The notes: generated by a model not told the origin, from the letters alone. Numbered from the stretch's first letter, positions 2,409 to 16,336 are shown. The stretch: DNA of 64,000 nucleotides from Ruminococcus sp. (GCA_021199305.1 JAJQIH010000037.1:1-64000), one strand, 5' to 3'. Numbers and translations are program-made.

Positions 2409-4961
2409 ATGAAAAAAATATTGTGTTCAATATTGTCATTTGCCATAATGTGTATGTTGTTCAGCTCTATTATACCTGCGTATGCGGACGATTATTTGAC
2501 TGAAGGGGATTGGACATATTCGGAAGAGGGATCTCTAAGAGGATACAATGGTACGGTTGTTGAAAACTTGACCTTACCGACACAGCTAGGCGGTGTTACC
2601 TTAACGGGCACCGCCTATACTTTTTATAATAATGGTTCATCATATAACTTTAATAACGAAGTTGTTTCTGTAATAATACCGGAAGGCTATACGTTAGTTG
2701 GCACTAACACATTTTATGGATGCACAAAGCTAAAAACCGTGGAGATACCAGAGGGCGTTACAAATATATCAACTTATGCACTGAGGAACTGTGTTTCGCT
2801 GGAAAGCGTCACACTCCCTTATTCTGTTGCTAAACTTATGGGTAGTTGCTTTAGCGGTTGCACAAATGAAAATTTAATTATTGATATCAAAAGAACAGAA
2901 ACCTTCACAACCTTGAACAGCACAGCGTTCTCGAATGTGGTAGGTACTATTTATGTATACTCACAGGAAGTATATGATCAAATTTCAGCAGTAGCTACAA
3001 CGGCAACGGTTATTTTAAAAGAAGAGGAAATAGACACTTCCGAGCTTGAAGCAGCAATTACAGCAGCAGAAGCTATCGATACAAGCGTTTATACAACGGC
3101 AAGCTTAGCGACATTAACCGACGCCGTTACAGCAGGTAAGACAGTTCTTAACAACGAAGACGCAACGCAGACAGAGATTAACAACGCAGCAACAGCTATA
3201 ACCGATGCAATTGATGCGCTCGTAACCCTTTTAGCTGAAGCGATTGAAAACGCAGAGTCGGCAATTGAAGCGGCGGAAATGATTGATACTACAAATTGTA
3301 CAGAGGATAGCGTAGCAGCGTTGACAGCGGCTATAGAAGCGGCAAAAACAGCGATAGCTGACGAATCGGCGACTGCTGATTCAGTTGAAGCGGCTGTAGA
3401 AGCGGTAAACGCGGCAGTAGCAGAGCTTGAAGGCGTAATTTACGTAACCGAAGATGAAGAGCTATACAACTCGATTTCATCAGCGGCAACAAGCGCAACG
3501 GTAATTTATGTAGCAGAGTCAGGTTTAAGCGGTCAGGTTCTGGCTAACATCTATTATGGTGGCAATACGTTATATCAGATTGCAACAGGAACAGCAGGTT
3601 CTGACATTGCAGGAGCGACAAGCGTCAAAGTATACTTTGACTGCGCGTCCGATGTAAGCTACAATCCATATGCATCGATTGATTTATATGCGGTAGTAAA
3701 TTCGACGCAAAACTACGCACAGATTGCAGGAACAGACAGCTCCTACTCGTCAGGTACAACAGGCTGGTCGGAAACTCTGTCGCTTGAAAATGCGATAGCA
3801 GAAGGCGACACATATACAATTTCCGGAGCTACATGGTCATGGAGCGGAGCGGAAGATTACGTATATGCAGTAACTAAGGTAGAGTTTTTGGATGACTCTG
3901 GCGCTGTACTGGCAACAATTGACCCGAACGTAGCTAACGACCTGACAGAGTTAAAGGCAGCGATAGTAGAAGCTGACGCCGTTGACGAAACAGTTTATAC
4001 AGACAACAGCGTAGCTACAATGAATGAAGCTCTCGCAGCAGCTATAACAGTTATTGGTAACGCAGATGCAACTCAGGATGAAGTTGACGCAGCAACAGCA
4101 GCTTTGACAGCAGCAATTGCTGGCCTTGTTGACACTTCAGACCTTGAGGGAACAATCGCAACAGCGGAAGATATTGATACGTCGGCGTTTACGCCATCGA
4201 GCGTAGCGGCAATGACCGAAGCACTTGAAAGTGCAAAGGAAACGCTTGCAAACGCAGACGTAACACAGGACGAAGTAAATGCGGCGGTAGATGCTCTGAC
4301 AGAAGCGATTAACGGCTTGACAGAGCTTGCTGACACAACAGATCTTGTAACTGCAATCGCAGATGCTGAGACAGTTGATGCAACCCTTTACACATCTTCA
4401 AGCGTAGCTGACTTAACAGCAGCACTCGAAGACGCAAAGACAGTTCTTGACAATGCAGATGCAACTCAGGACGAAGTTGATGCAGCAGCATCAGCTTTGA
4501 CAAGCGCAATCAACTCACTTGTAAGCGCATACTCGATAACTGGTACTGTATACGTTTCAGATTCTGATACAGAAACGACAATGACAGTAGCAGTAACTCT
4601 TGCAGATGGCACAGAGGTTTCAGCAGAAGCTACAAGTATGGGTGAGTACGCAATTGAAGGCTTGGATGCAGGCACTTACACAATCACAATCAGTGGTGGT
4701 AAATATGCTCCAAGAAGCTATGAAGTTGAAGTTTCGGAAAGCCTGACACAGGACGTTTACTTAAATCCATACGGAGATGTAAACGGTGACGGCAATGTAA
4801 CAACAGCAGATGTTGGACTTGCAAATAGCCATGCAAAGAACGTTACACTTCTTGAAGATTACGAATTTGTTTGCGCAGACGTAAATCTTGACGGAAGCGT
4901 AACAACAGCAGACGTTGGAAAGATCAACAGTCATGCTAAGGGCGTAGTAGCTCTATGGTAA
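2409..4961 (+). CDS. Secreted cellulosomal scaffold-like protein: BspA-type leucine-rich repeats, about 6-7 FIVAR helical repeats, CarboxypepD_reg-like domain and C-terminal type-I dockerin
   Basis: Signal peptide; LRR segment (VVSVIIPEGYTLVGTNTFYGCTKLKTVEIPEGVTNIS...); repeated 60-65 aa units with YT..S...L..A...AK..L.N.DATQ.EVDAA..AL..AI..L (FIVAR pattern); duplicated Ca-binding dockerin segments DVNGDGNVTTADV and DVNLDGSVTTADV at the C-terminus. Start moved to ATG 2409 (GGTGA 6 nt upstream). Confidence 0.75.
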   Translation: MKKILCSILSFAIMCMLFSSIIPAYADDYLTEGDWTYSEEGSLRGYNGTVVENLTLPTQLGGVTLTGTAYTFYNNGSSYNFNNEVVSVIIPEGYTLVGTNTFYGCTKLKTVEIPEGVTNISTYALRNCVSLESVTLPYSVAKLMGSCFSGCTNENLIIDIKRTETFTTLNSTAFSNVVGTIYVYSQEVYDQISAVATTATVILKEEEIDTSELEAAITAAEAIDTSVYTTASLATLTDAVTAGKTVLNNEDATQTEINNAATAITDAIDALVTLLAEAIENAESAIEAAEMIDTTNCTEDSVAALTAAIEAAKTAIADESATADSVEAAVEAVNAAVAELEGVIYVTEDEELYNSISSAATSATVIYVAESGLSGQVLANIYYGGNTLYQIATGTAGSDIAGATSVKVYFDCASDVSYNPYASIDLYAVVNSTQNYAQIAGTDSSYSSGTTGWSETLSLENAIAEGDTYTISGATWSWSGAEDYVYAVTKVEFLDDSGAVLATIDPNVANDLTELKAAIVEADAVDETVYTDNSVATMNEALAAAITVIGNADATQDEVDAATAALTAAIAGLVDTSDLEGTIATAEDIDTSAFTPSSVAAMTEALESAKETLANADVTQDEVNAAVDALTEAINGLTELADTTDLVTAIADAETVDATLYTSSSVADLTAALEDAKTVLDNADATQDEVDAAASALTSAINSLVSAYSITGTVYVSDSDTETTMTVAVTLADGTEVSAEATSMGEYAIEGLDAGTYTITISGGKYAPRSYEVEVSESLTQDVYLNPYGDVNGDGNVTTADVGLANSHAKNVTLLEDYEFVCADVNLDGSVTTADVGKINSHAKGVVALW

Positions 4962-5016
4962 AGCTAATCCTTCCTTAATGGGATTTATTATTAGATCTCT
5001 GAGAAAAATAGTTGCA

Positions 5017-5054
5017 AAAATCGGCAGAGTTTTCACTCTGCCGATTTTTGTTTT
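5017..5054 (+). terminator. Rho-independent terminator after the dockerin gene
   Basis: Hairpin atcggcagag-ttttca-ctctgccgat followed by TTTTTGTTTT. Confidence 0.7.
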
Positions 5055-5215: not shown

Positions 5216-5405
5216 GCGTGGTATTTTTACAGTTTCCCCTCGCCGAAGGCGAGGGGAAATTCTTTCTTTTCCAGGGCGAAGAGTACATACACCCGTTTAT
5301 ATGCCCACTTTGTTTCCCACTTCTTTATTTACATTATAGCAGCACAGGCTTTTTGGACAAATCAAGGCTATATCAGGTCGCTTTACAGCGGTCTGGTATA
5401 GCCTT

Positions 5406-5432
5406 TTTTCGCAAAGTATCTTAATTGACGAA
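5406..5432. repeat. Left 27-bp inverted repeat (IR-L) of the recombinase-containing invertible segment
   Basis: ttttcgcaaagtatcttaattgacgaa is the exact reverse complement of 6704..6730. Confidence 0.9.
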
Positions 5433-5461
5433 CGCTGACACGTCATCATTTATCTAGTAAA

Positions 5462-5490
5462 ATTATATATGGTGTTGTCGGATTTGTCAA
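5462..5490 (-). promoter_or_regulatory. Perfect consensus sigma-A promoter (TTGACA-17-TATAAT) on the minus strand inside the invertible segment, currently firing outward through IR-L into gene-free DNA
   Basis: Plus strand 5462-5467 attata (rc TATAAT), 17-nt spacer, 5485-5490 tgtcaa (rc TTGACA). Confidence 0.6.
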
Positions 5491-5525
5491 TAGAATGCAT
5501 AAAAATGTCGAAAAAAGTAGCAAAA

Positions 5526-5555
5526 TTGACGTCATATAGAACCAGGGCGTTTAAT
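5526..5555 (+). promoter_or_regulatory. Candidate promoter for the recombinase gene (TTGACG-18-TTTAAT)
   Basis: Sequence match only; lies about 50 nt upstream of the int RBS. Confidence 0.3.
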
Positions 5556-5604
5556 CTGTTTTACATTTCCTTCAGCATACATTTATAATTGCGGAGGTAC
5601 TGCT

Positions 5605-6669
5605 ATGTCGGAAAGAGGAGAAAATGTTTATAAAAGAAAAGGCGAAAGAAAAAACTCTACAGATTTAAAACGTCAGCAGCTTGAAATTAAAGACGAGTTG
5701 CAACAAGCTGATTTGTATTCTGATACGCCGTCTTGCAAATATGCTACAGTTTTAGATGAGTGGTTGGCAATGTCAAAAATACGGGTTAAGGAATCGACCT
5801 TTGCTTGCTACTCCCGAATTGTCAATTCGCATATTCGGGAAGAATTAGGCTCCTGTAATATAAATGAATTGACAACGATGATGATTGAGCAATTTATAAG
5901 CTACAAGCTGAGCATTGGCAACTTAAACAGCTGCAAAGGTCTGTCGCCGAAAACTGTCAGCGACATTCTATTTGTAATCAAAAGTACGCTCGAATATGCA
6001 AGGTGTCAGGGCTTGGATGTTCGGTGCAATCTGAGCCGAGTGGTCATAAAACGCTCTACAAAGGAGATACGTGTACTTACCAAAAAGGAGCAAGGCAAGC
6101 TCGTGAAGGTTCTGCTTGCCGATATGGATTTATATAAGTTTGGAACGCTTCTTTCACTCTATACCGGCATCAGAATTGGCGAGCTTTGTTCGCTGCAATG
6201 GCAGGACTTTTCTCCCGATAGTTGTGTTTTATCTGTAAGGAAAACAATCCAGCGAGTTCAAAATACCGATAAAGAAGCTTTAGCTAAAACAAAGGTAATC
6301 ATAACAGAACCTAAAAGTCAATGCTCTGTAAGAGATATACCAATACCTGCTTTTTTAAGAGAATACGTCGAACGGTTCAGGTCGGAAGATTCAGCATATA
6401 TTCTTTCAGGTCGTCAAGACAAATATGTTGAACCACGGACTATGCAGAATCACTTTAAAGCTTTTGTCAGACAAAGCAAAATTGCTGACGCTAACTTTCA
6501 CTCTTTGCGACATACATTTGCAACAAGATGTGTAGAGGTGGGATTCGATATTAAAAGCCTGAGCGAAATTCTAGGGCATTCTAACGTGAATATTACGCTG
6601 AACCGCTACGTTCACTCTTCTTTTGAGCTCAAGGCAAGCAATATGAGCAAGCTTTCTCTTGAAGTATAA
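5605..6669 (+). CDS. Tyrosine site-specific recombinase (phage integrase family)
   Basis: RBS GGAGG before ATG 5605; N-terminal SAM-like domain; catalytic signature TGIRIGEL (Arg), HSLRHTFATR (His-x-x-Arg), LGHSNVNITLNRYVHS (His, Tyr nucleophile). Confidence 0.85.
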   Translation: MSERGENVYKRKGERKNSTDLKRQQLEIKDELQQADLYSDTPSCKYATVLDEWLAMSKIRVKESTFACYSRIVNSHIREELGSCNINELTTMMIEQFISYKLSIGNLNSCKGLSPKTVSDILFVIKSTLEYARCQGLDVRCNLSRVVIKRSTKEIRVLTKKEQGKLVKVLLADMDLYKFGTLLSLYTGIRIGELCSLQWQDFSPDSCVLSVRKTIQRVQNTDKEALAKTKVIITEPKSQCSVRDIPIPAFLREYVERFRSEDSAYILSGRQDKYVEPRTMQNHFKAFVRQSKIADANFHSLRHTFATRCVEVGFDIKSLSEILGHSNVNITLNRYVHSSFELKASNMSKLSLEV

Positions 6670-6703
6670 GCTGTCAGTTTTATATCCAGCTTTTCGGAAA
6701 TAT

Positions 6704-6730
6704 TTCGTCAATTAAGATACTTTGCGAAAA
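6704..6730. repeat. Right 27-bp inverted repeat (IR-R), ending 3 nt before the RBS of the first TIR gene
   Basis: ttcgtcaattaagatactttgcgaaaa, the reverse complement of 5406..5432. Confidence 0.9.
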
Positions 6731-6746
6731 TATGGAGGTAATTAAA

Positions 6747-9215
6747 ATGGCAATCATAAAATGTAAAATGTGCGGCGGAGATATGGAAATCAATGAGGAG
6801 AAGTCTTTTGGCGTCTGCGAATACTGCGGAAGTACAATGACCTTGCCTAAAATTGATGATGAACAAAGGCTTGCTGCCTTTAATCGAGGAAATTATTTCA
6901 GACGTATTGGCGAATTTGATAAAGCTATTTCAATTTTCGAGCAGATTGTTGCCGAGGACGATACCGATGCCGAAGCGCATTGGTGCTGTGCGCTTTGTCG
7001 GTTTGGTATTGAATACGTCGAAGATCCTGCTACCCTTGAATGGCTGCCAACCTGTCACCGTGTGAGCTTTGATAGTTTTCTGGAAGACGTTGACTATCTG
7101 GCTGCTGTGGAATATTCAGACGGCATCACTCGCCGACAATATCAGAAGGATGCAGCTAAAATTGCAGAGGTTCAAAGAGGAGTTCTGGCGACAAGTCAGA
7201 AGGAAGAGCCTTTCGATGTCTTTATTTGTTATAAGGAAAGCGATGAGAACGGCCAGCGTACCGTAGATTCCACTCTCGCTCAGGATATTTATTACCAGCT
7301 TACCGAAAAGGGCAGGCGGGTGTTCTTTGCACGTATTACATTGGAGGACAAGGGCGGAGCTGAATACGAGCCGTACATATTTGCTGCGTTAAATAGCTCC
7401 AAGGTAATGGTTGTCGTTGGAACTAAAACTGAAAACTTCAATGCTGTCTGGGTTAAGAACGAGTGGAGCCGTTTCTTAAGCCTGATGAAAAAGGACCATT
7501 CAAAGCTGCTGCTGCCTTGCTACAGGGATATGAATCCTTATGATTTGCCTGACCAGCTTTCAGTTCTTCAATCTTACGATATGAGCAAAATCGGTTTTAT
7601 TCAGGACCTTATAAGAGGCGTAGACAAGGTTCTGGACGCTGGAAAGCAAACTGAAACTAAAAAAGAAACCGTCGTCATTCAAGGCGAAGGCGGCGGGAAT
7701 ATTTCCGCTTTGATAAAGCGTGGAAATATGTCGTTGGAGGACGGCGACTGGGATAAGGCTCAGGAGTTCTTTGACAGGGTTCTTGATAATGATGCTGAAT
7801 GTGCGGAAGCTTATCTCGGTAAGGCTTTGGCTGATATGAACCTTGCAAACCTTGATGCGTTTGAATACAGATATTTGCCGAAAGCAGATAATATCGAACC
7901 GACTGAACTGCAAGCTTACGTTCCGAATCAGAAAGAGCGGGAAGAAAAGCTTGCCGAAGAAAATGAAGTTCCGTACCAGCTGACAAAGGAAGACATACAT
8001 AATATCTGCACATTCGATTTTTCTTATCCAAGCCGTGTGAGCCGCTATAAAGAGGAAATGAACGCTGCTCTTGGAAAATTTCAAAACCGTAATTTTAAAA
8101 GAGCGGAGGAATATGCAAGCGGTAAATTCAAAATGCAGATAGAAGCTTTCAAGAGCGACACAAACAATAAAATGAAAAAGGCGTTGAAGGCTCTTGAAGA
8201 CGAGGATGCGCAATCGCAAAAGAATATCTGCGAGCGATATGATGAAGCCTTTGCAAAATGGGAAGAGCAAGCTGCACAAATGCGTACAACCGCCGAAGCT
8301 AAAAGAGAAGATGTATATCAAAGGGCAGTTTCAGCATTTGAAAAAGAAGAAGATAACTATAAGGCATTAGATTTATTTCAAAGAGAAGTAATAATAGATT
8401 ACAAAGACTCAAAAGAATATATAGGAAAAATTAAAAAACTCGAAAAAGAGAAAGCTGAACAAGTAGAAAAAGCAGAGAAGGAGAGAAAAGAAGCTTTACA
8501 GCAAAAAGAGAAGGAACGAAAGAAGAAAATCAAAAGAATCAAAATAAGTATAAGCTGTGTTGCTGTCGTAATAGTTTTTGCAGTTGTATTATTTACGGTG
8601 ATTATCCCGTCTATTAAGTATAACACAGCTATGAATTATTATCAAGACGGTGATTATGAAAAAGCTTATACTGCATTTGAGGAACTGGGCAGTTTTGGAG
8701 ATGCAAGCGATAAGATAACTGAAATAGCAGAAAAATATCCTAAAGTTATATGTGAAATGGCAGAGGACGGAGATATTATTAAATTTGGCAATTATAGTTG
8801 GATAGTTTTAGAAAAGACAGATGACACAATGCTGATTATCACAGAAGATGTTATTAAGGATAGAGTCTATAATGAGGAGTATGAAGATATAACATGGGAG
8901 GATTGCACACTTCGCGAATATCTGAATGGTTCATTTTATAATAGATTTTCAGAAGGAGAAAAATCAATGATAGCGGAAACAACCTTATCGGATAACAATG
9001 ACATAGTAGACAAAATTTTCCTATTAAGTTTAGAAGAAGCAGAGGAGTATATGACAGAAGATGAACGGGCTGCTTCCGGTTGGTGGTGGCTGCGGTCGCC
9101 TGGCGATACTCATTCTAGTGCGGCGGGAGTCTATTTCAACGGTGTCGTCGATACAAATGGTTGTGCTGTTGACGCTAAGGGTGGCGTTAGACCCGCTTGT
9201 TGGATTACTTTTTAA
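6747..9215 (+). CDS. Receptor-like multidomain TIR protein A: N-terminal C4 zinc ribbon, TIR domain, TPR repeats, coiled-coil, one TM helix, C-terminal WWLRSP (DUF6273-type) domain
   Basis: CKMCGG...CEYCGS zinc ribbon; TIR hallmark DVFICYKESDENG...VFFARITLEDKG...SKVMVVVGTKTENFNAVWVKNEWSRF; TPR-like EDGDWDKAQEFFDRVLDNDAECAEAYLGKALA; hydrophobic ISISCVAVVIVFAVVLFTVIIPSI; C-terminal WWLRSPGD...GGVRPACWITF. Start moved to ATG 6747 (GGAGG 8 nt upstream). Confidence 0.75.
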   Translation: MAIIKCKMCGGDMEINEEKSFGVCEYCGSTMTLPKIDDEQRLAAFNRGNYFRRIGEFDKAISIFEQIVAEDDTDAEAHWCCALCRFGIEYVEDPATLEWLPTCHRVSFDSFLEDVDYLAAVEYSDGITRRQYQKDAAKIAEVQRGVLATSQKEEPFDVFICYKESDENGQRTVDSTLAQDIYYQLTEKGRRVFFARITLEDKGGAEYEPYIFAALNSSKVMVVVGTKTENFNAVWVKNEWSRFLSLMKKDHSKLLLPCYRDMNPYDLPDQLSVLQSYDMSKIGFIQDLIRGVDKVLDAGKQTETKKETVVIQGEGGGNISALIKRGNMSLEDGDWDKAQEFFDRVLDNDAECAEAYLGKALADMNLANLDAFEYRYLPKADNIEPTELQAYVPNQKEREEKLAEENEVPYQLTKEDIHNICTFDFSYPSRVSRYKEEMNAALGKFQNRNFKRAEEYASGKFKMQIEAFKSDTNNKMKKALKALEDEDAQSQKNICERYDEAFAKWEEQAAQMRTTAEAKREDVYQRAVSAFEKEEDNYKALDLFQREVIIDYKDSKEYIGKIKKLEKEKAEQVEKAEKERKEALQQKEKERKKKIKRIKISISCVAVVIVFAVVLFTVIIPSIKYNTAMNYYQDGDYEKAYTAFEELGSFGDASDKITEIAEKYPKVICEMAEDGDIIKFGNYSWIVLEKTDDTMLIITEDVIKDRVYNEEYEDITWEDCTLREYLNGSFYNRFSEGEKSMIAETTLSDNNDIVDKIFLLSLEEAEEYMTEDERAASGWWWLRSPGDTHSSAAGVYFNGVVDTNGCAVDAKGGVRPACWITF

Positions 9216-9233: not shown

Positions 9234-10184
9234 ATGGCAAAACATAAGCAAGTCTTATTATTAGGAAATGGAATCAATCGGGCATTTGACGGATTTTCCT
9301 GGCAGGAATTGCTTGCAATGTTAAGCGAAAGCTATAGTAAGGAAGACGTGGAAAAGCTTGAATCCCCCGCACCCCTGCAAGCGATTCTTGTAACCCGTGA
9401 CCACGTTGACACTGTATTGAAAGAACACAAAAAAGAGCTGTTTGGAACTGTAAATTCAGAACAAAGAGAAATTTTGCGGAAACTACTTTCTATTAAATTT
9501 GATGCAATTCTGACAACCAATTACAGTTATGAGCTTGAAATCGCAGCTCAGGAAAAAATATCCGATTCTGGAATTTCCGAATACAGGCTGAAAAAATTAT
9601 TGCGCCATAGCGACAGTGTCAAACAGGCGGAACCTCGGTACTCGTTATATACATATAATGAAGTTTCTTATAATGGTGTACAGAATAAAATATGGCATAT
9701 ACACGGAGAAGCCCGAAAACCGAGCAGCATTGTTTTAGGACACTACTATTATGCAAATTATATCGGCAAATTGCACGACCTCAACCAATCCCGGGAAAAT
9801 GTATATTCACGCAAACAGAAAGCGGGCGAAGAATTTTCTATAAAAAGCTGGTTTGACGCATTTGTTTTAGGAGATGTGCACGTACTGGGTTTTGGATTTG
9901 ATTTTTCGGAAATGGATTTATGGTGGCTTTTAAATCGAAAAAAGCGAGAAAAAGCCGACCACGGAAAAGTCTGCTTTTATGATGCAAAAGCTTCAGAAGA
10001 AAGCTCTGATTTAAAAGAAAAGTATGACTTGCTGAAAATGCTGGGCGTAAAATTATGCCTGGAAGAAACAGAACCAAATAATGATTGGAAATCATTTTAT
10101 TGGAAAGCGATTGAAAAAATCGAACAATCAATTAAAAGACAAGTTAAAGAAACAATGAAAGAGGAGGAACTCATTTATGTCTGA
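9234..10184 (+). CDS. SIR2_2-family (sirtuin-like, predicted NAD+-consuming) protein, short form without a SLOG sensor domain
   Basis: VLLLGNGINRAF...SWQELL; ILTTNYSYELE (TTNY box carrying the catalytic Asn of ThsA-type SIR2); IWHIHGE...IVLGHYYY (HG His). RBS AAGGAGG; 8-nt overlap with the next gene. Confidence 0.7.
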   Translation: MAKHKQVLLLGNGINRAFDGFSWQELLAMLSESYSKEDVEKLESPAPLQAILVTRDHVDTVLKEHKKELFGTVNSEQREILRKLLSIKFDAILTTNYSYELEIAAQEKISDSGISEYRLKKLLRHSDSVKQAEPRYSLYTYNEVSYNGVQNKIWHIHGEARKPSSIVLGHYYYANYIGKLHDLNQSRENVYSRKQKAGEEFSIKSWFDAFVLGDVHVLGFGFDFSEMDLWWLLNRKKREKADHGKVCFYDAKASEESSDLKEKYDLLKMLGVKLCLEETEPNNDWKSFYWKAIEKIEQSIKRQVKETMKEEELIYV

Positions 10185-12033
10185 ATTCGCAATTGAATGC
10201 CCGGTTTGTGGCAAATACGTAGAAGCAAAAACAGGAATTTTCGCAAGTAAGCAAATCGCTTGCTCTTGTGGAAATATTATCAATGTTAAAACTGACAAGC
10301 TCACGACAAGAAAGTGTGAGCATTGTGGAAATGTGGTTGTTTACGACCAGTCCAAGAGCAAATCAAAATGTATCTGTCCGGTTTGTCATACCGAGATAAA
10401 TACGCTTGCCAATAAGCAGCAGGAGGCAGAGTTTTCTTGCGCTCAATGCGGAATAAAGCTTTCAACTATAAAAAGCGCAACAAAGTATACCTGCCCTGTT
10501 TGTGATTATGAAAACGACGTTCAGGAGTGCCTGGCGAAAGAAAAAATCAAGCACGACGGACTTGCGAGCATTATAAAGTTTGAAGGGAATAACGATGCAC
10601 TTGTATGGAAGCATCCGATTGAGGACTTCAATCTCGGCTCGCAGCTGATAGTACATGAAAGCCAGGAAGCGATATTCTTTAAGGACGGACAGGCGTTAGA
10701 CCTTTTCGGCCCTGGCAGATATACGCTTGAAACCCAGCAGCTGCCGTTGCTTGAAAAGATATATAAGCTTCCGACAGATACTGAGGGAACATTCCATTCC
10801 GAGGTTTACTTTATAAACAAGACCGTTCAGATGTCAATAAGGTGGGGAACACCCGATAAGGTACGCTTTATTGACCCGCTTACAGGCGTTCCGCTATCAT
10901 TAGGCGCATCAGGTGAGATGAATTTACAGGTTTCAAATGCCAGAAAGCTGATTGTCAAGCTTGTAGGAACGATGAATGGTATTGCCTGGGAAGATGAGGA
11001 GGGCTTGTCAAAATCCCTTCAGAAATCCTTCCGCCCGCTGATAGTAAATGCAGTCAAGACAAATCTGCCGTCTGTTATAAAAAGCGAAGCGATTGATATT
11101 TTGGAAATAGACGAAAATCTGGATATTATTTCACAAAGCTTGCGAAAGAAGATTTCAGCAGGCTTTGAGGAGTACGGTCTGACAATTCCTCAATTTTATG
11201 TGACAGCAGTTGTACTTCCTGAGGAAGACCCGAACTTCAAGAGAATACGTGATTTACATACTATTACTCTGCAAACCAGAGTAATTCAGGCTGAGGCGAC
11301 AGTAAAAACAGCGCAGGCTCAAAGCGAAACGCAATATCGCACAGCTCAGGAGCAAAGCAAGGCTGCTATCGAAGAAGCAAGACGACAGGCGGAGCTGCAG
11401 CGCCAGACTACCGAAACAGAGGTAGCAAAAAGAGAAGCAGAGCGTACTGTTATTGCGGCGCAAGCCGAAGCGCAGGCAGCCAGAATGGCAGGACTTACCG
11501 AAGCTGAGGTTATGAAAGCCAAAGGCTACACCGAGAAGGACGTATTGCAGGCCGAGGTTCAGAAAGCTTACGCTGCTGGACTTGGCGAAATGGGTTCTGG
11601 CGGTGGAATAAATGTCGGCGGCGGCAGCAGCGTTATGGGCGATATGCTTGGTATGGGAATTGGACTTGCAGCAGCTGGAGCGGTTGCTCCGCAGATTGGC
11701 AATATGATGCAGGGACTGAATCCGAACGCACAAAATAACGCCGCAGGCACGAATACTGATAACGCTCCTCAGCCTGATACGTGGGATTGCTCCTGCGGTC
11801 AGAAAAATATAGTTGGAAATTTCTGTAATAATTGCGGCTCAAAGCGACCAACGCCCGAGGGGGAAGAAACCTGGAATTGCAGCTGCGGAAAGACAGGCAA
11901 TACTGGTAAATTCTGCTCAAATTGTGGAGCTAAGAGAGCTGACGACGCTCAGGCTACATGGGATTGTAGCTGTGGAAAGACAGGTAATACAGGTAATTTC
12001 TGTAATAATTGTGGAAAGAAGAAGGAGAACTAA
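10177..12033 (+). CDS. Zinc-ribbon-rich SPFH/Band-7-like protein with flotillin-like coiled-coil, Gly-rich hydrophobic segment and three C-terminal zinc ribbons
   Basis: At least four N-terminal CxxC...CxxC pairs; central Band-7-like region (FKDGQALDLFGPGRYTLET...IRWGTPDKVRFIDPLTG); Q/A/E-rich coiled-coil (QAEATVKTAQAQSET...AQAEAQAARMAGL); C-terminal WDCSCG...FCNNCG repeated three times. Confidence 0.55.
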   Translation: MSEFAIECPVCGKYVEAKTGIFASKQIACSCGNIINVKTDKLTTRKCEHCGNVVVYDQSKSKSKCICPVCHTEINTLANKQQEAEFSCAQCGIKLSTIKSATKYTCPVCDYENDVQECLAKEKIKHDGLASIIKFEGNNDALVWKHPIEDFNLGSQLIVHESQEAIFFKDGQALDLFGPGRYTLETQQLPLLEKIYKLPTDTEGTFHSEVYFINKTVQMSIRWGTPDKVRFIDPLTGVPLSLGASGEMNLQVSNARKLIVKLVGTMNGIAWEDEEGLSKSLQKSFRPLIVNAVKTNLPSVIKSEAIDILEIDENLDIISQSLRKKISAGFEEYGLTIPQFYVTAVVLPEEDPNFKRIRDLHTITLQTRVIQAEATVKTAQAQSETQYRTAQEQSKAAIEEARRQAELQRQTTETEVAKREAERTVIAAQAEAQAARMAGLTEAEVMKAKGYTEKDVLQAEVQKAYAAGLGEMGSGGGINVGGGSSVMGDMLGMGIGLAAAGAVAPQIGNMMQGLNPNAQNNAAGTNTDNAPQPDTWDCSCGQKNIVGNFCNNCGSKRPTPEGEETWNCSCGKTGNTGKFCSNCGAKRADDAQATWDCSCGKTGNTGNFCNNCGKKKEN

Positions 12034-12034
12034 A

Positions 12035-12721
12035 ATGAAGAAGAGTAGTTTAAAAGGATATTTAATCATAGCCATTATTTTAATAGTATTCAGCGTGGTA
12101 GCATTTTTACCGCCATTTTCAAAGACAGCAGTATTTTTTGTAGCATATTGCTTCGGACTGATTTCTATATTGTCGCAAATTTATTTCTTCAAGACCTCAT
12201 TTAGCGGCGAAGGCGCAAAGAGCAAATTTTACGGCTTCCCGATTGCCAGACTAGGAGTTATTTACCTGGTTGTTCAGCTTATTTTAAGTCTGCTTGAAAT
12301 GGTATTTGCAGCTTTTATTCCTCTGTGGGTTGTGCTTATTGTAGATATAGTCGTTACAGGAGCAGCTGCTATCGGTTGTATCGCGGTAGACACTATGCGG
12401 GAAGAAATCGTTCGACAGGATAACGTTCTCAAGAAAGACGTATCTGCTATGCGGGAGCTCCAATCCTTAGCAGCAGTGTTGCAGAGCCAATGCGATAACG
12501 ACGAAATGAAGGAGGATATAAAGAAAATATCCGAAGAGCTCAGATTCAGCGACCCCGTTTCGTCCGAAAAGTCCGCAATACTCGAAAAGAGATTATTGGT
12601 GCAGCTGGGCGAAATACAAAATGCTATGCTTGCGGGCGATGCAGAAACTGTAAAAGAAATGTCTGAAAAGGCGCTTGCAAATTTAACAGAGCGAAACAGA
12701 ATCTGTAAATTGAGCAAGTAG
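12035..12721 (+). CDS. Small integral membrane protein (about 4 TM helices) with alpha-helical cytoplasmic tail
   Basis: RBS AGGAGAA plus ATG 12035 one nt after the upstream stop; hydrophobic stretches IIAIILIVFSVVAFL, VFFVAYCFGLISILSQIYFF, IYLVVQLILSLL, IPLWVVLIVDIVVTGAAAIGCIAV. Confidence 0.6.
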   Translation: MKKSSLKGYLIIAIILIVFSVVAFLPPFSKTAVFFVAYCFGLISILSQIYFFKTSFSGEGAKSKFYGFPIARLGVIYLVVQLILSLLEMVFAAFIPLWVVLIVDIVVTGAAAIGCIAVDTMREEIVRQDNVLKKDVSAMRELQSLAAVLQSQCDNDEMKEDIKKISEELRFSDPVSSEKSAILEKRLLVQLGEIQNAMLAGDAETVKEMSEKALANLTERNRICKLSK

Positions 12722-12765: not shown

Positions 12766-14874
12766 ATGGCTGTTTTTAAATGTAAGATGTGCGGAGGAAT
12801 GCTTGAAGTCACGGAGGGCGCAAAAATCTGCGAATGCGAATACTGTGGAAGCAAGCAGACTATTCCGTCTGTAAACGAGGAAAATCTGCGGAGCCTTTTT
12901 AACAGAGCTAATGTTCTCAGAATGAGGGGCGAGTACGATAAAGCCGCAGATATTTATGAGAAAATCATACAGGCTGATGAAACAGAAGCTGAGGCGTACT
13001 GGGGATTGGTGCTTTGTAAGTACGGTGTGGAATATGTTGAAGATCCAGCAACCTTAAAGCGGGTTCCAACCTGTCACAGAACGTCCTTTGACGCTGTTAT
13101 CACAAGCGAAGATTACAGCAAGGCGATAGAATACGCAGATATAGCTCAAAAGAGTATCTATGAGTCGGAAGCTAAAGCTATTGATGAAATCCAGAAGGGA
13201 ATACTTAACGTAGTATCCTCTGAGGAACCGTACGACGTATTTATTTGCTATAAGGAAGCTGACGAAAATGGAAAGAGAACTCACGATAGCGTAATTGCAA
13301 ATGACATTTATCACCAATTAACGCAGGAGGGCTTTAAGGTCTTTTATGCGGCAATTACCCTCGAGGATAAGTTAGGAAGCGAATACGAGCCTTACATATT
13401 TGCGGCTTTGAATTCGTCGAAGGTTATGCTGGCGATTGGTACAAAGCCTGAATACTTTAACGCTGTGTGGGTAAAAAACGAGTGGTCTCGCTTTATGAAA
13501 ATTATGCGAACCGACCGAAGCCGCACGCTTATCCCTTGCTATAGAGATATGGACGCTTATGAGCTGCCTGAAGAATTTGCTCACCTGCAGGCTCAGGATA
13601 TGTCAAAAATCGGCTTTATAAACGACATTATCAGGGGAATAAAAAAGATAGTGGTAATACCTGAGATGGCAGGCGGAAATGTTTCCAATGGATCAACGGT
13701 TCGCAGACTGGATAAAGCCACAGCGGCAAATGTTGAAGCTTTACTGAAAAGAGCTGACATATCTCTTAACGACGGCGAATGGAAAAAAGCGGATGAATGC
13801 TGCGAGAAGGCTCTTGATTTAGATCCTGAAAATGGGCAAGCCTATTTAGCAAAGCTGATGGCGCAGTTAAAGCTACATAATGCGGAGGAGTTTCAAACTC
13901 GTGTGGGAACAATAGAGGGGTATGAATATTTTAAAAAGGCACAACGCTTTGGCGATAATGAACTAAAGGCAAAGCTTGAGGAATATGACAATCAGGGTGT
14001 CTATAATGAAGCGATAGAAAAAATGCAGAGTGCAAAAGACGCACAGACTTATCGAGAAATAAAGGATGTATTAGAGCGACTTGGAAATTTTTCTGGTGCT
14101 TCTGAAAAGGCTGAGGAATGTGAAACTTTAGCCTTGAAGTGCTTGAAAAAACGCAAACGGCGCAAGCGGAGAATAATTAGTATTCTTTGTAGCGTGGTTG
14201 TACTTGCTATAGTGTCTAAATTGGCAATTGATAAGGTGATTATTCCTTACTGCGAGAATCGTGAAATTTACAATACAGCGATGAATTATTATGAAAGCGG
14301 TGATTTAGGAGCTGCTTATAATATTTTTGTGGAACTGGGCGATTTTAGTGACTCAAAAGAAATGATAAATAAGGTATGTTCAAAACTCAGCAACGGAGAT
14401 ATTATAGAATTTGGTGATTATAGCTGGATTGTTTTAGAAAAATCGGATGACACAATGCTAATTATCACAGAAGATATTATTGAGGATAGAGCCTATAACG
14501 AGCAGAAAGAAGATATAACATGGGAGAATTGCACACTTCGCGAATATCTGAATGGGTCATTTTATGATAGCTTTTCAGAAGAAGAGCAATCAATGATAGT
14601 AGAAACAAATCTAACGAATCCTGACAATTCAAAATGTGGCACAGACGGTGGTAATGATACAACAGATAAGATATTCCTATTAAGCTTAGAAGAAGCGGAA
14701 GAATATATGACAGAAGATGAGCGAATAGCTTCTGATCGGTGGTGGCTGCGTTCGCCCGGCGGTATTCAGGATCATACGGCGGTAGTCTCTATCAGCGGCG
14801 TCATCGGTACGAATGGCTTTTATGTCAATTATGAGTATGGTGTTCGTCCCGCCCTCCGTCTGAAGCTTAGTTAA
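12766..14874 (+). CDS. Receptor-like multidomain TIR protein B (paralog of 6747..9215): zinc ribbon, TIR, TPR, TM helix, C-terminal WWLRSP (DUF6273-type) domain
   Basis: MAVFKCKMCGG...CEYCGS; DVFICYKEADENGKRT...VFYAAITLEDKLG...SKVMLAIGTKPEYFNAVWVKNEWSRF; TM IISILCSVVVLAIVSKLAI; C-terminal WWLRSPGG...GVRPALRLKL. Confidence 0.75.
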   Translation: MAVFKCKMCGGMLEVTEGAKICECEYCGSKQTIPSVNEENLRSLFNRANVLRMRGEYDKAADIYEKIIQADETEAEAYWGLVLCKYGVEYVEDPATLKRVPTCHRTSFDAVITSEDYSKAIEYADIAQKSIYESEAKAIDEIQKGILNVVSSEEPYDVFICYKEADENGKRTHDSVIANDIYHQLTQEGFKVFYAAITLEDKLGSEYEPYIFAALNSSKVMLAIGTKPEYFNAVWVKNEWSRFMKIMRTDRSRTLIPCYRDMDAYELPEEFAHLQAQDMSKIGFINDIIRGIKKIVVIPEMAGGNVSNGSTVRRLDKATAANVEALLKRADISLNDGEWKKADECCEKALDLDPENGQAYLAKLMAQLKLHNAEEFQTRVGTIEGYEYFKKAQRFGDNELKAKLEEYDNQGVYNEAIEKMQSAKDAQTYREIKDVLERLGNFSGASEKAEECETLALKCLKKRKRRKRRIISILCSVVVLAIVSKLAIDKVIIPYCENREIYNTAMNYYESGDLGAAYNIFVELGDFSDSKEMINKVCSKLSNGDIIEFGDYSWIVLEKSDDTMLIITEDIIEDRAYNEQKEDITWENCTLREYLNGSFYDSFSEEEQSMIVETNLTNPDNSKCGTDGGNDTTDKIFLLSLEEAEEYMTEDERIASDRWWLRSPGGIQDHTAVVSISGVIGTNGFYVNYEYGVRPALRLKLS

Positions 14875-14960: not shown

Positions 14961-14989
14961 TTGCATTTTTTGTATAAGTGTGCTATAAT
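14961..14989 (+). promoter_or_regulatory. Sigma-A-type promoter TTGCAT-17-TATAAT for the DUF4143 ATPase gene
   Basis: Sequence match; ends 30 nt before the start codon. Confidence 0.55.
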
Positions 14990-15019
14990 ATACCCATAAT
15001 ATACTTTGGAGGTGGGCAT

Positions 15020-16336
15020 ATGTATAGAACCGCAATAGAAAAGCTGCTGAAATGGAAAGAAAGCAAGCACAGCAAGCCGCTTATTATCGAGGGAGCCAGA
15101 CAGGTCGGTAAAACCTGGTTGATGAAGGAGTTCGGAAGGCAGGCTTATTCCAGCACGGTATACATTAACTTTGATTCTAATTCACAAATGGCGGAGCTGT
15201 TTTCGTCTGACCTGGACACAAGCCGCATAATTATGGGATTGGAGCTGTACGCTGGCAGCAAAATAGACCCTGAAAATACGCTTTTGATTTTCGATGAGGT
15301 TCAGGAGGTTCCCAGAGCGCTTTCCTCGCTCAAGTATTTTTGTGAGGACGCTCCTCAATACCATATCGTTTGTGCAGGTTCGCTTTTAGGTATTGCATTG
15401 CATGAGGGTACTTCATTTCCAGTAGGAAAGGTGGATTTTTTAAAGCTTTATCCTCTTTCTTTTGTTGAGTTTTTAATGGCGGTCGGCAAGGAACGCTATG
15501 CAGAATTGCTCGCAAGACGAGATTTCGATATGATTTCCGCTTTTAAACAGACATATATTGACGCTTTGAAGCAATACTATTTTGTAGGCGGTATGCCCGA
15601 GGCTGTTCAAAGCTTCGCAGAGGATAATGATTTTAACGAGGTTCGTGACATTCAAAAACGTATACTTGCGGCTTATGAGCAGGATTTTTCCAAACACGCT
15701 CCTAATGAAATTGTACCGAAAATCCGAATGGTCTGGAACAGTATTCCTTCTCAGCTTGCCAAAGAGAACAAAAAGTTTATTTACGGCCTTGTCCGTGAGG
15801 GAGGACGTGCAAAGGATTACGAAACCGCAATTATGTGGCTGACAGACTGTGGTCTTGTTCATAAGGTCAGCCGTGTTAATGCGGCTGGTATTCCCTTGAA
15901 GGCTTACGAGGATTTAAAAGCGTTCAAGCTGTATGTTGTTGATGTTGGCCTTCTCGGATGTATGACTGGACTTAACCAGCATACATTGTTAGATGGCAAC
16001 GATCTTTTTGTAGAATTTAAAGGAGCATTAACAGAACAATATGTTTGCCAGCAGCTTAAAGCAATTGACAATTTGAATATTTACTATTACACTAACAGCA
16101 GGAACTCGTGCGAAGTTGACTTTGTCGTTGACACAGGAGTTCAGATTGTTCCTGTAGAGGTAAAGGCTGAGGTGAACCTTAAGTCAAAAAGTTTAAAGAC
16201 ATATTGCGAGAAATACTCTCCTCAAATTGCTGTTCGCACTTCAATGGCGGAATACAAAAAAGAAAATTGGCTTTTAAACTTGCCATTGTATGCAATATCC
16301 TGCTTTAATATGGTAGATGACCTTTCCGTTTTGTAA
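15020..16336 (+). CDS. AAA-family ATPase of the DUF4143 type
   Basis: P-loop LIIEGARQVGKTWL; Walker B LLIFDEVQEV; family typically associated with accessory/mobile regions. Start at ATG 15020 (GGAGG 8 nt upstream). Confidence 0.7.
   Translation: MYRTAIEKLLKWKESKHSKPLIIEGARQVGKTWLMKEFGRQAYSSTVYINFDSNSQMAELFSSDLDTSRIIMGLELYAGSKIDPENTLLIFDEVQEVPRALSSLKYFCEDAPQYHIVCAGSLLGIALHEGTSFPVGKVDFLKLYPLSFVEFLMAVGKERYAELLARRDFDMISAFKQTYIDALKQYYFVGGMPEAVQSFAEDNDFNEVRDIQKRILAAYEQDFSKHAPNEIVPKIRMVWNSIPSQLAKENKKFIYGLVREGGRAKDYETAIMWLTDCGLVHKVSRVNAAGIPLKAYEDLKAFKLYVVDVGLLGCMTGLNQHTLLDGNDLFVEFKGALTEQYVCQQLKAIDNLNIYYYTNSRNSCEVDFVVDTGVQIVPVEVKAEVNLKSKSLKTYCEKYSPQIAVRTSMAEYKKENWLLNLPLYAISCFNMVDDLSVL

Follow-up and report, generated by a model that had tools for sequence, protein, structure and literature searches.

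A 64,000-nucleotide stretch of Ruminococcus sp. DNA (GCA_021199305.1 JAJQIH010000037.1:1-64000, hereafter the window) contains, at positions 5406-6730, a tyrosine recombinase gene that is enclosed by inverted repeats (IRs) and lies directly upstream of an operon encoding TIR, SIR2-like and SPFH proteins. Does this segment invert and thereby control the operon, or is it a locked relic, a switch with a different logic, or a mobile unit? A preliminary description of the window had read it as a self-contained, Hin-like inverton that is run by a tyrosine recombinase and gates the TIR operon. This reading is now supported by an outward-facing promoter within the segment (P_out), by the core-site architecture of the repeats, by a conserved layout in the family of relatives and by the presence of both orientations in that family. 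We consider it likely that 5406-6730 is a self-contained phase-variation switch for the adjacent TIR operon, acting through its self-encoded recombinase and P_out.

Core sites, recombinase gene and promoter

The segment and its borders comprise the following features:

5364-5405, no strand assigned: imperfect 19-bp hairpin, 84% complementary, abutting the left inverted repeat (IR-L), whose TTTT follows it on the + strand
5406-5432, + strand: IR-L, a core site (TTTTCGCAAAGTATCTTAATTGACGAA); exact IR with the site architecture of the family and no substitutions relative to a 96% ortholog
5407-5416, + strand: outer half-site of IR-L, TTTCGCAAAG
5417-5423, + strand: asymmetric 7-nt spacer of IR-L, TATCTTA
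5424-5432, + strand: inner half-site of IR-L, ATTGACGAA
5490 to 5462, - strand: P_out, TTGACA-17-TATAAT, a 12/12 consensus match on the strand opposite the recombinase gene, reading outward through IR-L
5560-5589, + strand: candidate promoter of the recombinase gene, TTTACA-18-TATAAT (11/12)
5605-6669, + strand: tyrosine recombinase gene, 354 aa, catalytic residues intact
6669-6703, + strand: gap between the recombinase stop codon and the right inverted repeat (IR-R), with a weak hairpin only (-8.4 kcal/mol)
6704-6730, - strand: IR-R, the same core site as IR-L in inverted orientation; exact IR, unchanged relative to the ortholog
6734-6738, + strand: Shine-Dalgarno sequence GGAGG, 3 nt past the end of IR-R (6730)

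The perfect 27-bp repeats reported in the preliminary description were confirmed: 5406-5432 and 6704-6730 are reverse complements at 27/27 nt, with 1271 nt between the arms, and the whole segment measures 1325 bp. When the window was searched for the 27-mer with up to 3 mismatches, the two arms were the sole matches, and 100 dinucleotide-preserving shuffles gave none. Each arm is a lox/dif-like, dyad-symmetric core site with half-sites of ~10 nt around a 7-nt spacer, and the aligned arms of the family read TTTCG(Y)A(R)AG, ~7 variable nt and then the inverted half-site. Such an organisation is typical of lox, FRT, dif and att core sites. At the family loci the exact identity between left and right arms always spans the outer half-site and the spacer; the inner half-sites differ between the arms in L037, L039, L046, L058, L077, L081 and L092. 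Identity over exactly these parts is what strand exchange in the spacer requires, whereas the terminal repeats of a transposon would not require it. In tyrosine recombinase reactions the asymmetric spacer sets directionality, and inverted sites lead to inversion, not to excision. A reading of the arms as attL and attR was rejected. Neither a paralogous recombinase nor a flanking direct repeat was found in the window.

Some relatives carry two tandem copies of the core site per arm (L075, 5687-5740 and 7275-7328, 54 nt; L089, 3054-3126 and 4551-4623, 73 nt), and L049 is a 1625-nt k99 contig with 99-nt terminal inverted repeats (1-99 and 1527-1625). Tandem sites and long repeats of this kind could be accessory sites, or they could reflect IRs that break assemblies.

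The sole open reading frame of at least 60 aa between the arms is 5605-6669, in line with the earlier claim that a 354-aa tyrosine recombinase with intact catalytic motifs is the only enclosed gene. Its product matches Phage_integrase (PF00589, 4.7e-25) and Phage_int_SAM_3, and the catalytic residues R190, H299, R302, H325 and Y335, which conform to the superfamily pattern R..H-x-x-R..H/W..Y, do not vary across a family alignment of 15 sequences. Among solved structures, that of the Tn1549 integrase comes nearest (6EN0/6EMY, E about 1e-15). Integrases of the Tn1549/Tn916 type likewise possess the SAM_3 core-binding domain, but they excise and integrate between directly repeated ends, whereas the sites in the window are inverted around a recombinase gene and a promoter only. 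We take the N-terminal extension of most family members to resemble the arm-binding domain of these integrases. Three other assignments were rejected. The FimB/FimE-type invertase model (NF007371) gave 18.7 bits against a cutoff of 222; among XerC, XerD, XerA and XerS the best score was 81.5 bits against 220 (XerA), the other Xer models likewise remaining under their cutoffs; and, as regards a Hin/Gin/Cin serine invertase, Pfam gave tyrosine-integrase domains only. Within 5605-5700 the gene shows a lineage-specific in-frame loss ('WEGRYIR..GKAKYGYVYG'), common to the window and the 96% ortholog.

This ortholog (L002) is a 96% relative of the recombinase at the same locus in a metagenome-assembled genome (MAG) of Ruminococcus, and the two genomes differ by ~3% elsewhere. 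Comparison of the two recombinase genes gave a dS of 0.075 and a dN of 0.018 (dN/dS 0.24), and there were no substitutions in IR-L, in IR-R or in the P_out region (5433-5532). It follows that gene and sites alike have been maintained.

The -10 box of P_out ends 29 nt from IR-L. In the present orientation the promoter faces the hairpin at 5364-5405, which is likely to act as an insulator or terminator between the left neighbour and the switch, and then further terminator-like hairpins; no minus-strand gene was found on this side for more than 1 kb. A comparable hairpin occupies the same place in the Agathobacter rectalis relatives. Inversion would map each position x to 12136-x and bring P_out to ~6646-6674 on the + strand, with the -35 box at 6646-6651 and the -10 box at 6669-6674. 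The predicted order is then promoter, 29 nt, IR (27 nt), TAT, GGAGG, 8 nt and ATG, with a leader of ~66 nt to 6747. One predicted flipped junction reads ...GGTATAGCCTT|TTTTCGCAAAGTATCTTAATTGACGAA|ATATTTCCGAAAAGCTGG... and the other ...GACGTGTCAGCG|TTCGTCAATTAAGATACTTTGCGAAAA|TATGGAGGTAATT... As had been stated before, IR-R ends 3 nt before GGAGG, with the ATG at 6747, and the coordinates bear this out; an alternative ATG at 6732 has no Shine-Dalgarno sequence. Since IR-R and the ATG are only 16 nt apart, there is no room for another promoter between them. The candidate promoter at 5560-5589 is doubtful as the promoter of the recombinase gene, its -10 box ending 16 nt before the ATG and the motif showing no conservation in the family. 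The segment thus has an IR pair, a recombinase gene between the repeats and, as judged by consensus match, an inside promoter that faces the neighbouring operon in one orientation only.

In the mechanism that we propose, the segment-encoded recombinase would bind the two identical core sites and, as these are inverted, strand exchange in the TATCTTA spacer would flip the whole 1325-bp segment. In the present state P_out would point left into the hairpin/terminator region, with no gene to drive, and transcription of the TIR/SIR2-like/SPFH/TIR operon would be limited to read-through, if any, from the recombinase gene (OFF or low). In the flipped state P_out would lie ~70 nt ahead of the start codon of the TIR gene and would turn the operon ON. 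On this assignment, the window copy is probably in the promoter-away, OFF or low state.

Layout and orientation at related loci

The preliminary description had called invertons that have their own recombinase and gate an immune-type operon unusual. As to frequency this proved wrong, since at least 572 species-representative genomes encode relatives of the recombinase, as found by a family-alignment scan. Layouts were counted in the best 80 loci of that scan, at 39-68% identity. About 50 of the 80 have their own exact IR pair of at least 15 nt bracketing the recombinase gene, and these span Lachnospiraceae, Oscillospiraceae and Ruminococcaceae. The IRs lie at conserved distances from the gene, ~170-280 nt ahead of its start codon and ~70-100 nt past its stop codon. 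An outward promoter matching at least 10/12 positions lies opposite the recombinase strand in 44/50 loci, against 9/50 for the coding strand of the same region, and its -10 box ends 18-44 nt from IR-L in 36/50 loci. Perfect 27-nt or 25-nt IRs of their own are present in L004 (68% identity) and in the A. rectalis loci L005-L014 (57%).

Both orientations occur in the family. In two Mediterraneibacter species a short-form switch lies directly downstream of a family recombinase gene (L030 and L032), with flanks identical at 288/300 and 299/300 positions, both IRs at 21/21 and the recombinase genes at 1025/1053. The inner 183 nt, by contrast, match at 173/183 positions as the reverse complement and at 105/183 directly. 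A second case is given by two paralogous loci of one MAG (L063 and L066), whose recombinase genes align +/+ and whose homologous neighbour DNA, ~2 kb long, lies to the left of one element and to the right of the other, in reverse-complement form and equally far from the IR. The opposite-side pattern recurs in L046 and L055. Assembled metagenomes are suggestive of mixed orientations as well: the Logan contigs L095, L097 and L098 end at the IRs or symmetrically inside them although the IR is shorter than k-1, which could reflect either mixed orientations in the samples or multiple genomic contexts. Logan assemblies use a k=31 graph; L099 was rejected as a sign of mixed orientation because its 30-nt IR equals k-1, L096 because it is not bounded by the IRs, and the k99 contig L049 with its 99-nt terminal IR is ambiguous in this respect. 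For short invertons of Clostridia that are associated with tyrosine integrases, read-supported flipping has been reported (PMC11892184).

Several observations weigh against an active switch in the window. No flipped copy of the locus was found, all three contigs recovered by exact look-up of the recombinase and its 96% relative (L001, L002 and L003) being in the window orientation; the window 27-mer had no matches in metagenome contigs; and a metagenome scan for the right-hand junction expected after flipping of the A. rectalis element also gave none, a result that has no denominator because normal junctions were uncounted. Assemblies of the sequencing runs SRR15221298 and SRR15221302 carry the locus. 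About 22 N-terminal residues (the 'RWEGRY...GYVYGK' segment), present in its closest relatives, are missing from the window recombinase. The terminator after the recombinase gene is weak, which may make the present state leaky and not OFF, and the promoter and terminator calls are consensus matches.

The 22-aa deletion, which the window shares with the 96% ortholog, the common orientation of the three contigs and the weak terminator would suit a once-active switch that has become locked, its recombinase no longer flipping the segment after partial N-terminal loss and its operon being silent or expressed by low constitutive read-through. We regard such a relic as unlikely, considering that the IRs are still 27/27 and unchanged between genomes ~3% apart, that P_out is 12/12 and invariant and that dN/dS is 0.24. 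Moreover, sublineages without the whole N-terminal region, in which the match starts near query residue 46, keep the IR-bracketed layout and are found in both orientations, which softens the concern raised by the deletion. The window copy may still flip.

A crude gene census placed the operon on the recombinase-3' side in ~40/50 loci, as in the window, and on the promoter side in ~5-6/50 (L037, L090, L072, L063, L061 and L055). This predominance of operons co-directional with the recombinase gene could mean that the present orientation is the one in which the operon is expressed together with that gene, P_out serving the other side, for instance a small regulator gene, or the two orientations giving a high and a low state instead of ON and OFF. 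The small helix-turn-helix (HTH) gene that many relatives carry on the P_out side, reading away, and the weak terminator in the window agree with this. We nevertheless hold it to be improbable: the P_out side of the window is geneless for more than 1 kb, no recombinase-gene promoter is conserved, close relatives have strong 14-bp terminator stems between the recombinase stop codon and IR-R, and in L025 the short-form switch directs a 12/12 promoter towards the operon in the same geometry. A strict terminator scan 3' of the recombinase gene found a hairpin followed by a T-run in only 12/50 loci, so that calling the co-directional state OFF is based on the close relatives and not on the whole family. 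The small HTH genes on the promoter side, together with the XRE-type HTH gene that comes first after IR-R in the subfamily closest to the window, may represent a second regulatory layer, which the window does not have.

Spread, cargo and affinities of the family

The closest relatives of the recombinase bear the name Ruminococcus sp., and thousands of others were found at 40-68% identity; the A. rectalis relative is listed in 1495 blocks of the contig collection. A first scan of the contigs with the single recombinase protein as query had given no matches, whereas the alignment-based scan did. For many family proteins (P0017, P0071, P0094, P0098 and others) the longest contig is 1.4-1.5 kb, roughly the length from IR to IR, which suggests that assemblies often break at such switches. 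The A. rectalis 25-mer had no matches in viral contigs.

The genes on the regulated side vary widely. In L004 they encode an HTH protein, an M78 peptidase and a YukD/ThiF/UQ_con ubiquitin-like system, and in A. rectalis a small HTH protein, FHA and PP2C proteins and a Ser/Thr kinase-WD40 protein, all wholly unlike the window operon. At 40-odd loci the two genes nearest the switch on the regulated side were scanned (82 proteins); their products include XRE-type HTH proteins (9/82), NusG-like proteins, TetR regulators, M78 peptidases, Ser/Thr kinases and S26 signal peptidases, together with radical SAM enzymes and with LytR_cpsA_psr, DegT and Bac_transf proteins. Such variety agrees with a regulatory cassette that is portable.

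A module that precedes very different operons, an identical IR in three genera and contigs bounded by the IRs could also be accounted for by a small, insertion-sequence-like transposable element whose terminal repeats are the IRs and which, with its outward promoter, moves rather than flips. This is very improbable. The flanks of the segment (CAGCGGTCTGGTATAGCCTT and TATGGAGGTAATTAAAATGG) are without a common repeat, that is, without a target-site duplication, and neither further copies of the 27-mer nor element copies with such duplications, which the preliminary description had named as signs of a transposing unit, were found in the 64-kb window. Orthologs occupy the same site, and 10/10 A. 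rectalis contigs share their context. Where an IR is shared across genera, its flanks are shared at 94-97% as well, so that a larger region has moved. By the established tyrosine recombinase mechanism, inverted sites invert and cannot excise, and in L030 and L032 it is the inner segment that is flipped between identical flanks.

Returning to the inversion switch, we compared it with known systems. It resembles the Salmonella H segment (hin, hixL/hixR and the fljBA promoter) in having the recombinase inside the segment, an outward promoter that drives the neighbouring operon in one orientation only and IRs of ~26 bp, but Hin, a serine recombinase dependent on Fis and an enhancer, acts on hix sites with a 2-bp core, whereas the window has a tyrosine recombinase and 10-nt half-sites around a 7-nt spacer. 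In E. coli fimS, as in the proposed switch, a tyrosine recombinase (FimB/FimE) inverts a promoter segment and turns a neighbouring operon ON or OFF; there, however, the recombinases are encoded outside the 314-bp switch, which has 9-bp IRs, and not inside. Promoter switches run by tyrosine recombinases are already known from fim, from RecV and from the Tsr recombinases of Bacteroides. Parallels in the same host class are the Clostridial 'inverton group 139 / invertase group 35' (PMC11892184) and RecV of C. difficile, with IRs of up to 26 nt, an adjoining tyrosine recombinase gene and read-supported flipping, but these switches measure ~150-400 bp and have the recombinase outside, RecV acting in trans on many sites, whereas in the window the gene lies inside a 1.3-kb switch. 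Short forms with the same site motif as the family occur in L025, L030/L032 and L041.

A tyrosine recombinase gene can sit between the IRs on which it acts, as in the hsdS shufflons of type I restriction-modification systems (PMC7672463, PMC9881135). Those shufflons reshuffle coding sequence, whereas inversion in the window would move a promoter and leave the proteins unchanged. With Cre/loxP and Xer/dif the core sites have in common two inverted binding elements, a short asymmetric spacer that gives direction and inversion as the outcome at inverted sites; there is no sequence relationship. The literature contains general statements of recombinases within invertible segments, but in a coverage that is incomplete we found no description of a conserved and widespread family of promoter invertons that each enclose their own tyrosine recombinase.

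We tentatively propose, as a distinct possibility, that the window element is a member of a widespread and undescribed 'integrase-inside' class of promoter invertons in gut and rumen Clostridia, in which Tn1549-like integrases have been recruited as portable cassettes of ~1.3-1.5 kb. The operons controlled by such cassettes would range from XRE-led conflict systems through capsule loci and kinases to the membrane-anchored TIR proteins of the window and their SIR2-like and SPFH partners, and only a subpopulation of cells would express the TIR system. The family-level pattern is solid, whereas activity at the window locus and the function of the cargo are inferred. If the switch is active, the TIR/SIR2-like membrane system of a fibre-degrading Ruminococcus would be confined to part of the population, a form of bet-hedging for a costly or dangerous function. 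With members in hundreds of species of gut Clostridia, the family would supply recombinase and promoter before very different operons by means of one compact cassette. A length of ~1.3-1.5 kb would be too long for standard inverton finders. Read-based surveys give a median of 3 invertons per Clostridia genome (PMC11892184); since these surveys will probably overlook or disregard gene-containing switches of 1.3-1.5 kb, phase variation in gut Clostridia may be underestimated. The defined 10-7-10 nt site and the self-encoded enzyme make a testable system with possible engineering use. A. rectalis, which bears a family member and is culturable, is a possible experimental model.

Additional observations were made at individual loci. 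In the subfamily closest to the window, a small XRE-type HTH protein (...SQEELSNxxGVSRQTYSAIE...MSW...) is encoded by the conserved first regulated gene, directly after IR-R (L004, L005, L019-L023, L042-L045, L062 and L083); it is absent from the window. In Clostridium sp. AF27-2AA (L042:7566-8351) and Butyricicoccus pullicaecorum (L045:7663-8397) this HTH gene is immediately followed by erm(B) (565 bits, cutoff 525). The erm(B) cassette is 99-100% identical to that of Enterococcus plasmids, which indicates a recent insertion beside the family switch, and expression of erm(B) might be phase-variable at these two loci. Nearly the same IR is found in L042, L045 and L043 (Coprococcus intestinihominis). 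When plasmids were searched with the erm(B)-linked family member, the erm(B) cassette was all that matched. Plasmid pRUMAL02 of Ruminococcus albus 7 (DSM 20455; L100, NC_014825.1 135358-144317) gave five recombinase matches, the best at 40.7% identity; the one inspected lies where several recombinase genes, of the tyrosine and the serine type, are clustered, and is uninformative.

The TIR operon and its neighbours

Downstream of IR-R the window encodes:

6747-9215, + strand: first regulated gene, 822 aa, Zn-ribbon/TPR/TIR_2 protein with one transmembrane (TM) helix and TPR/DUF6273
9234-10184, + strand: SIR2_2/AbiH-like protein, 316 aa, with a marginal Pfam match (SIR2_2, 26.6 bits, cutoff 24.5)
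10177-12033, + strand: SPFH/Band_7_1 protein, 618 aa, overlapping the preceding gene by 8 nt
12034-12721, + strand: multi-pass membrane protein; the likely true start is ATG 12034, preceded by AGGAG
12766-14874, + strand: second Zn-ribbon/TPR/TIR_2/TM/DUF6273 protein, 702 aa, probably the last gene of the operon

In the designation of these genes as a TIR/SIR2 operon, the TIR part is clear (TIR_2, 1e-9, 39 bits against a cutoff of 28), whereas the SIR2 part is marginal at the score listed above, and the SIR2-like protein matched neither PADLOC nor NCBIfam. The further designation as an immune-type operon remains unproven. Of the five operon products, only the second TIR protein matched PADLOC, and weakly (PDC-S66, 1.4e-4), the first TIR, SIR2-like, SPFH and membrane proteins giving no match; assignment to Thoeris (ThsB TIR and ThsA SIR2) or to another catalogued defence system was accordingly rejected. 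Both TIR proteins are single-pass membrane proteins with TIR on the N-terminal side of the membrane segment and TPR/DUF6273 on the other. They share the order N-terminal Zn-ribbon, TPR, TIR_2, coiled/TPR region, TM helix, and TPR with DUF6273, the strong TM helix lying at residues ~595-626 in the first protein and ~468-495 in the second. By analogy, this topology is reminiscent of Toll-like receptors. Rather than a Thoeris-like cytoplasmic defence, the operon may thus encode a membrane sensor or a surface system, the classical type of phase-variable target. A similar arrangement is known from the tirE cluster of E. faecium (int1 - tirE1 - Sir2-like hp1 - tirE2; PMC6304867), where, as in the window, an integrase gene lies directly upstream of a TIR/SIR2-like/TIR operon.

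Just past the operon, an AAA_14/DUF4143 ATPase gene (14978-16336) matches the PADLOC candidate PDC-S01 (1.8e-194); it is probably separate from the operon. Upstream of the switch lie genes for a GH5 cellulase and a dockerin/FIVAR protein. The type I dockerin part of the upstream gene contains a 72-nt direct repeat (4772-4945, 72% identity, 102 nt apart), and past the dockerin gene a perfect 16-bp hairpin (5015-5050) resembles a bidirectional terminator.

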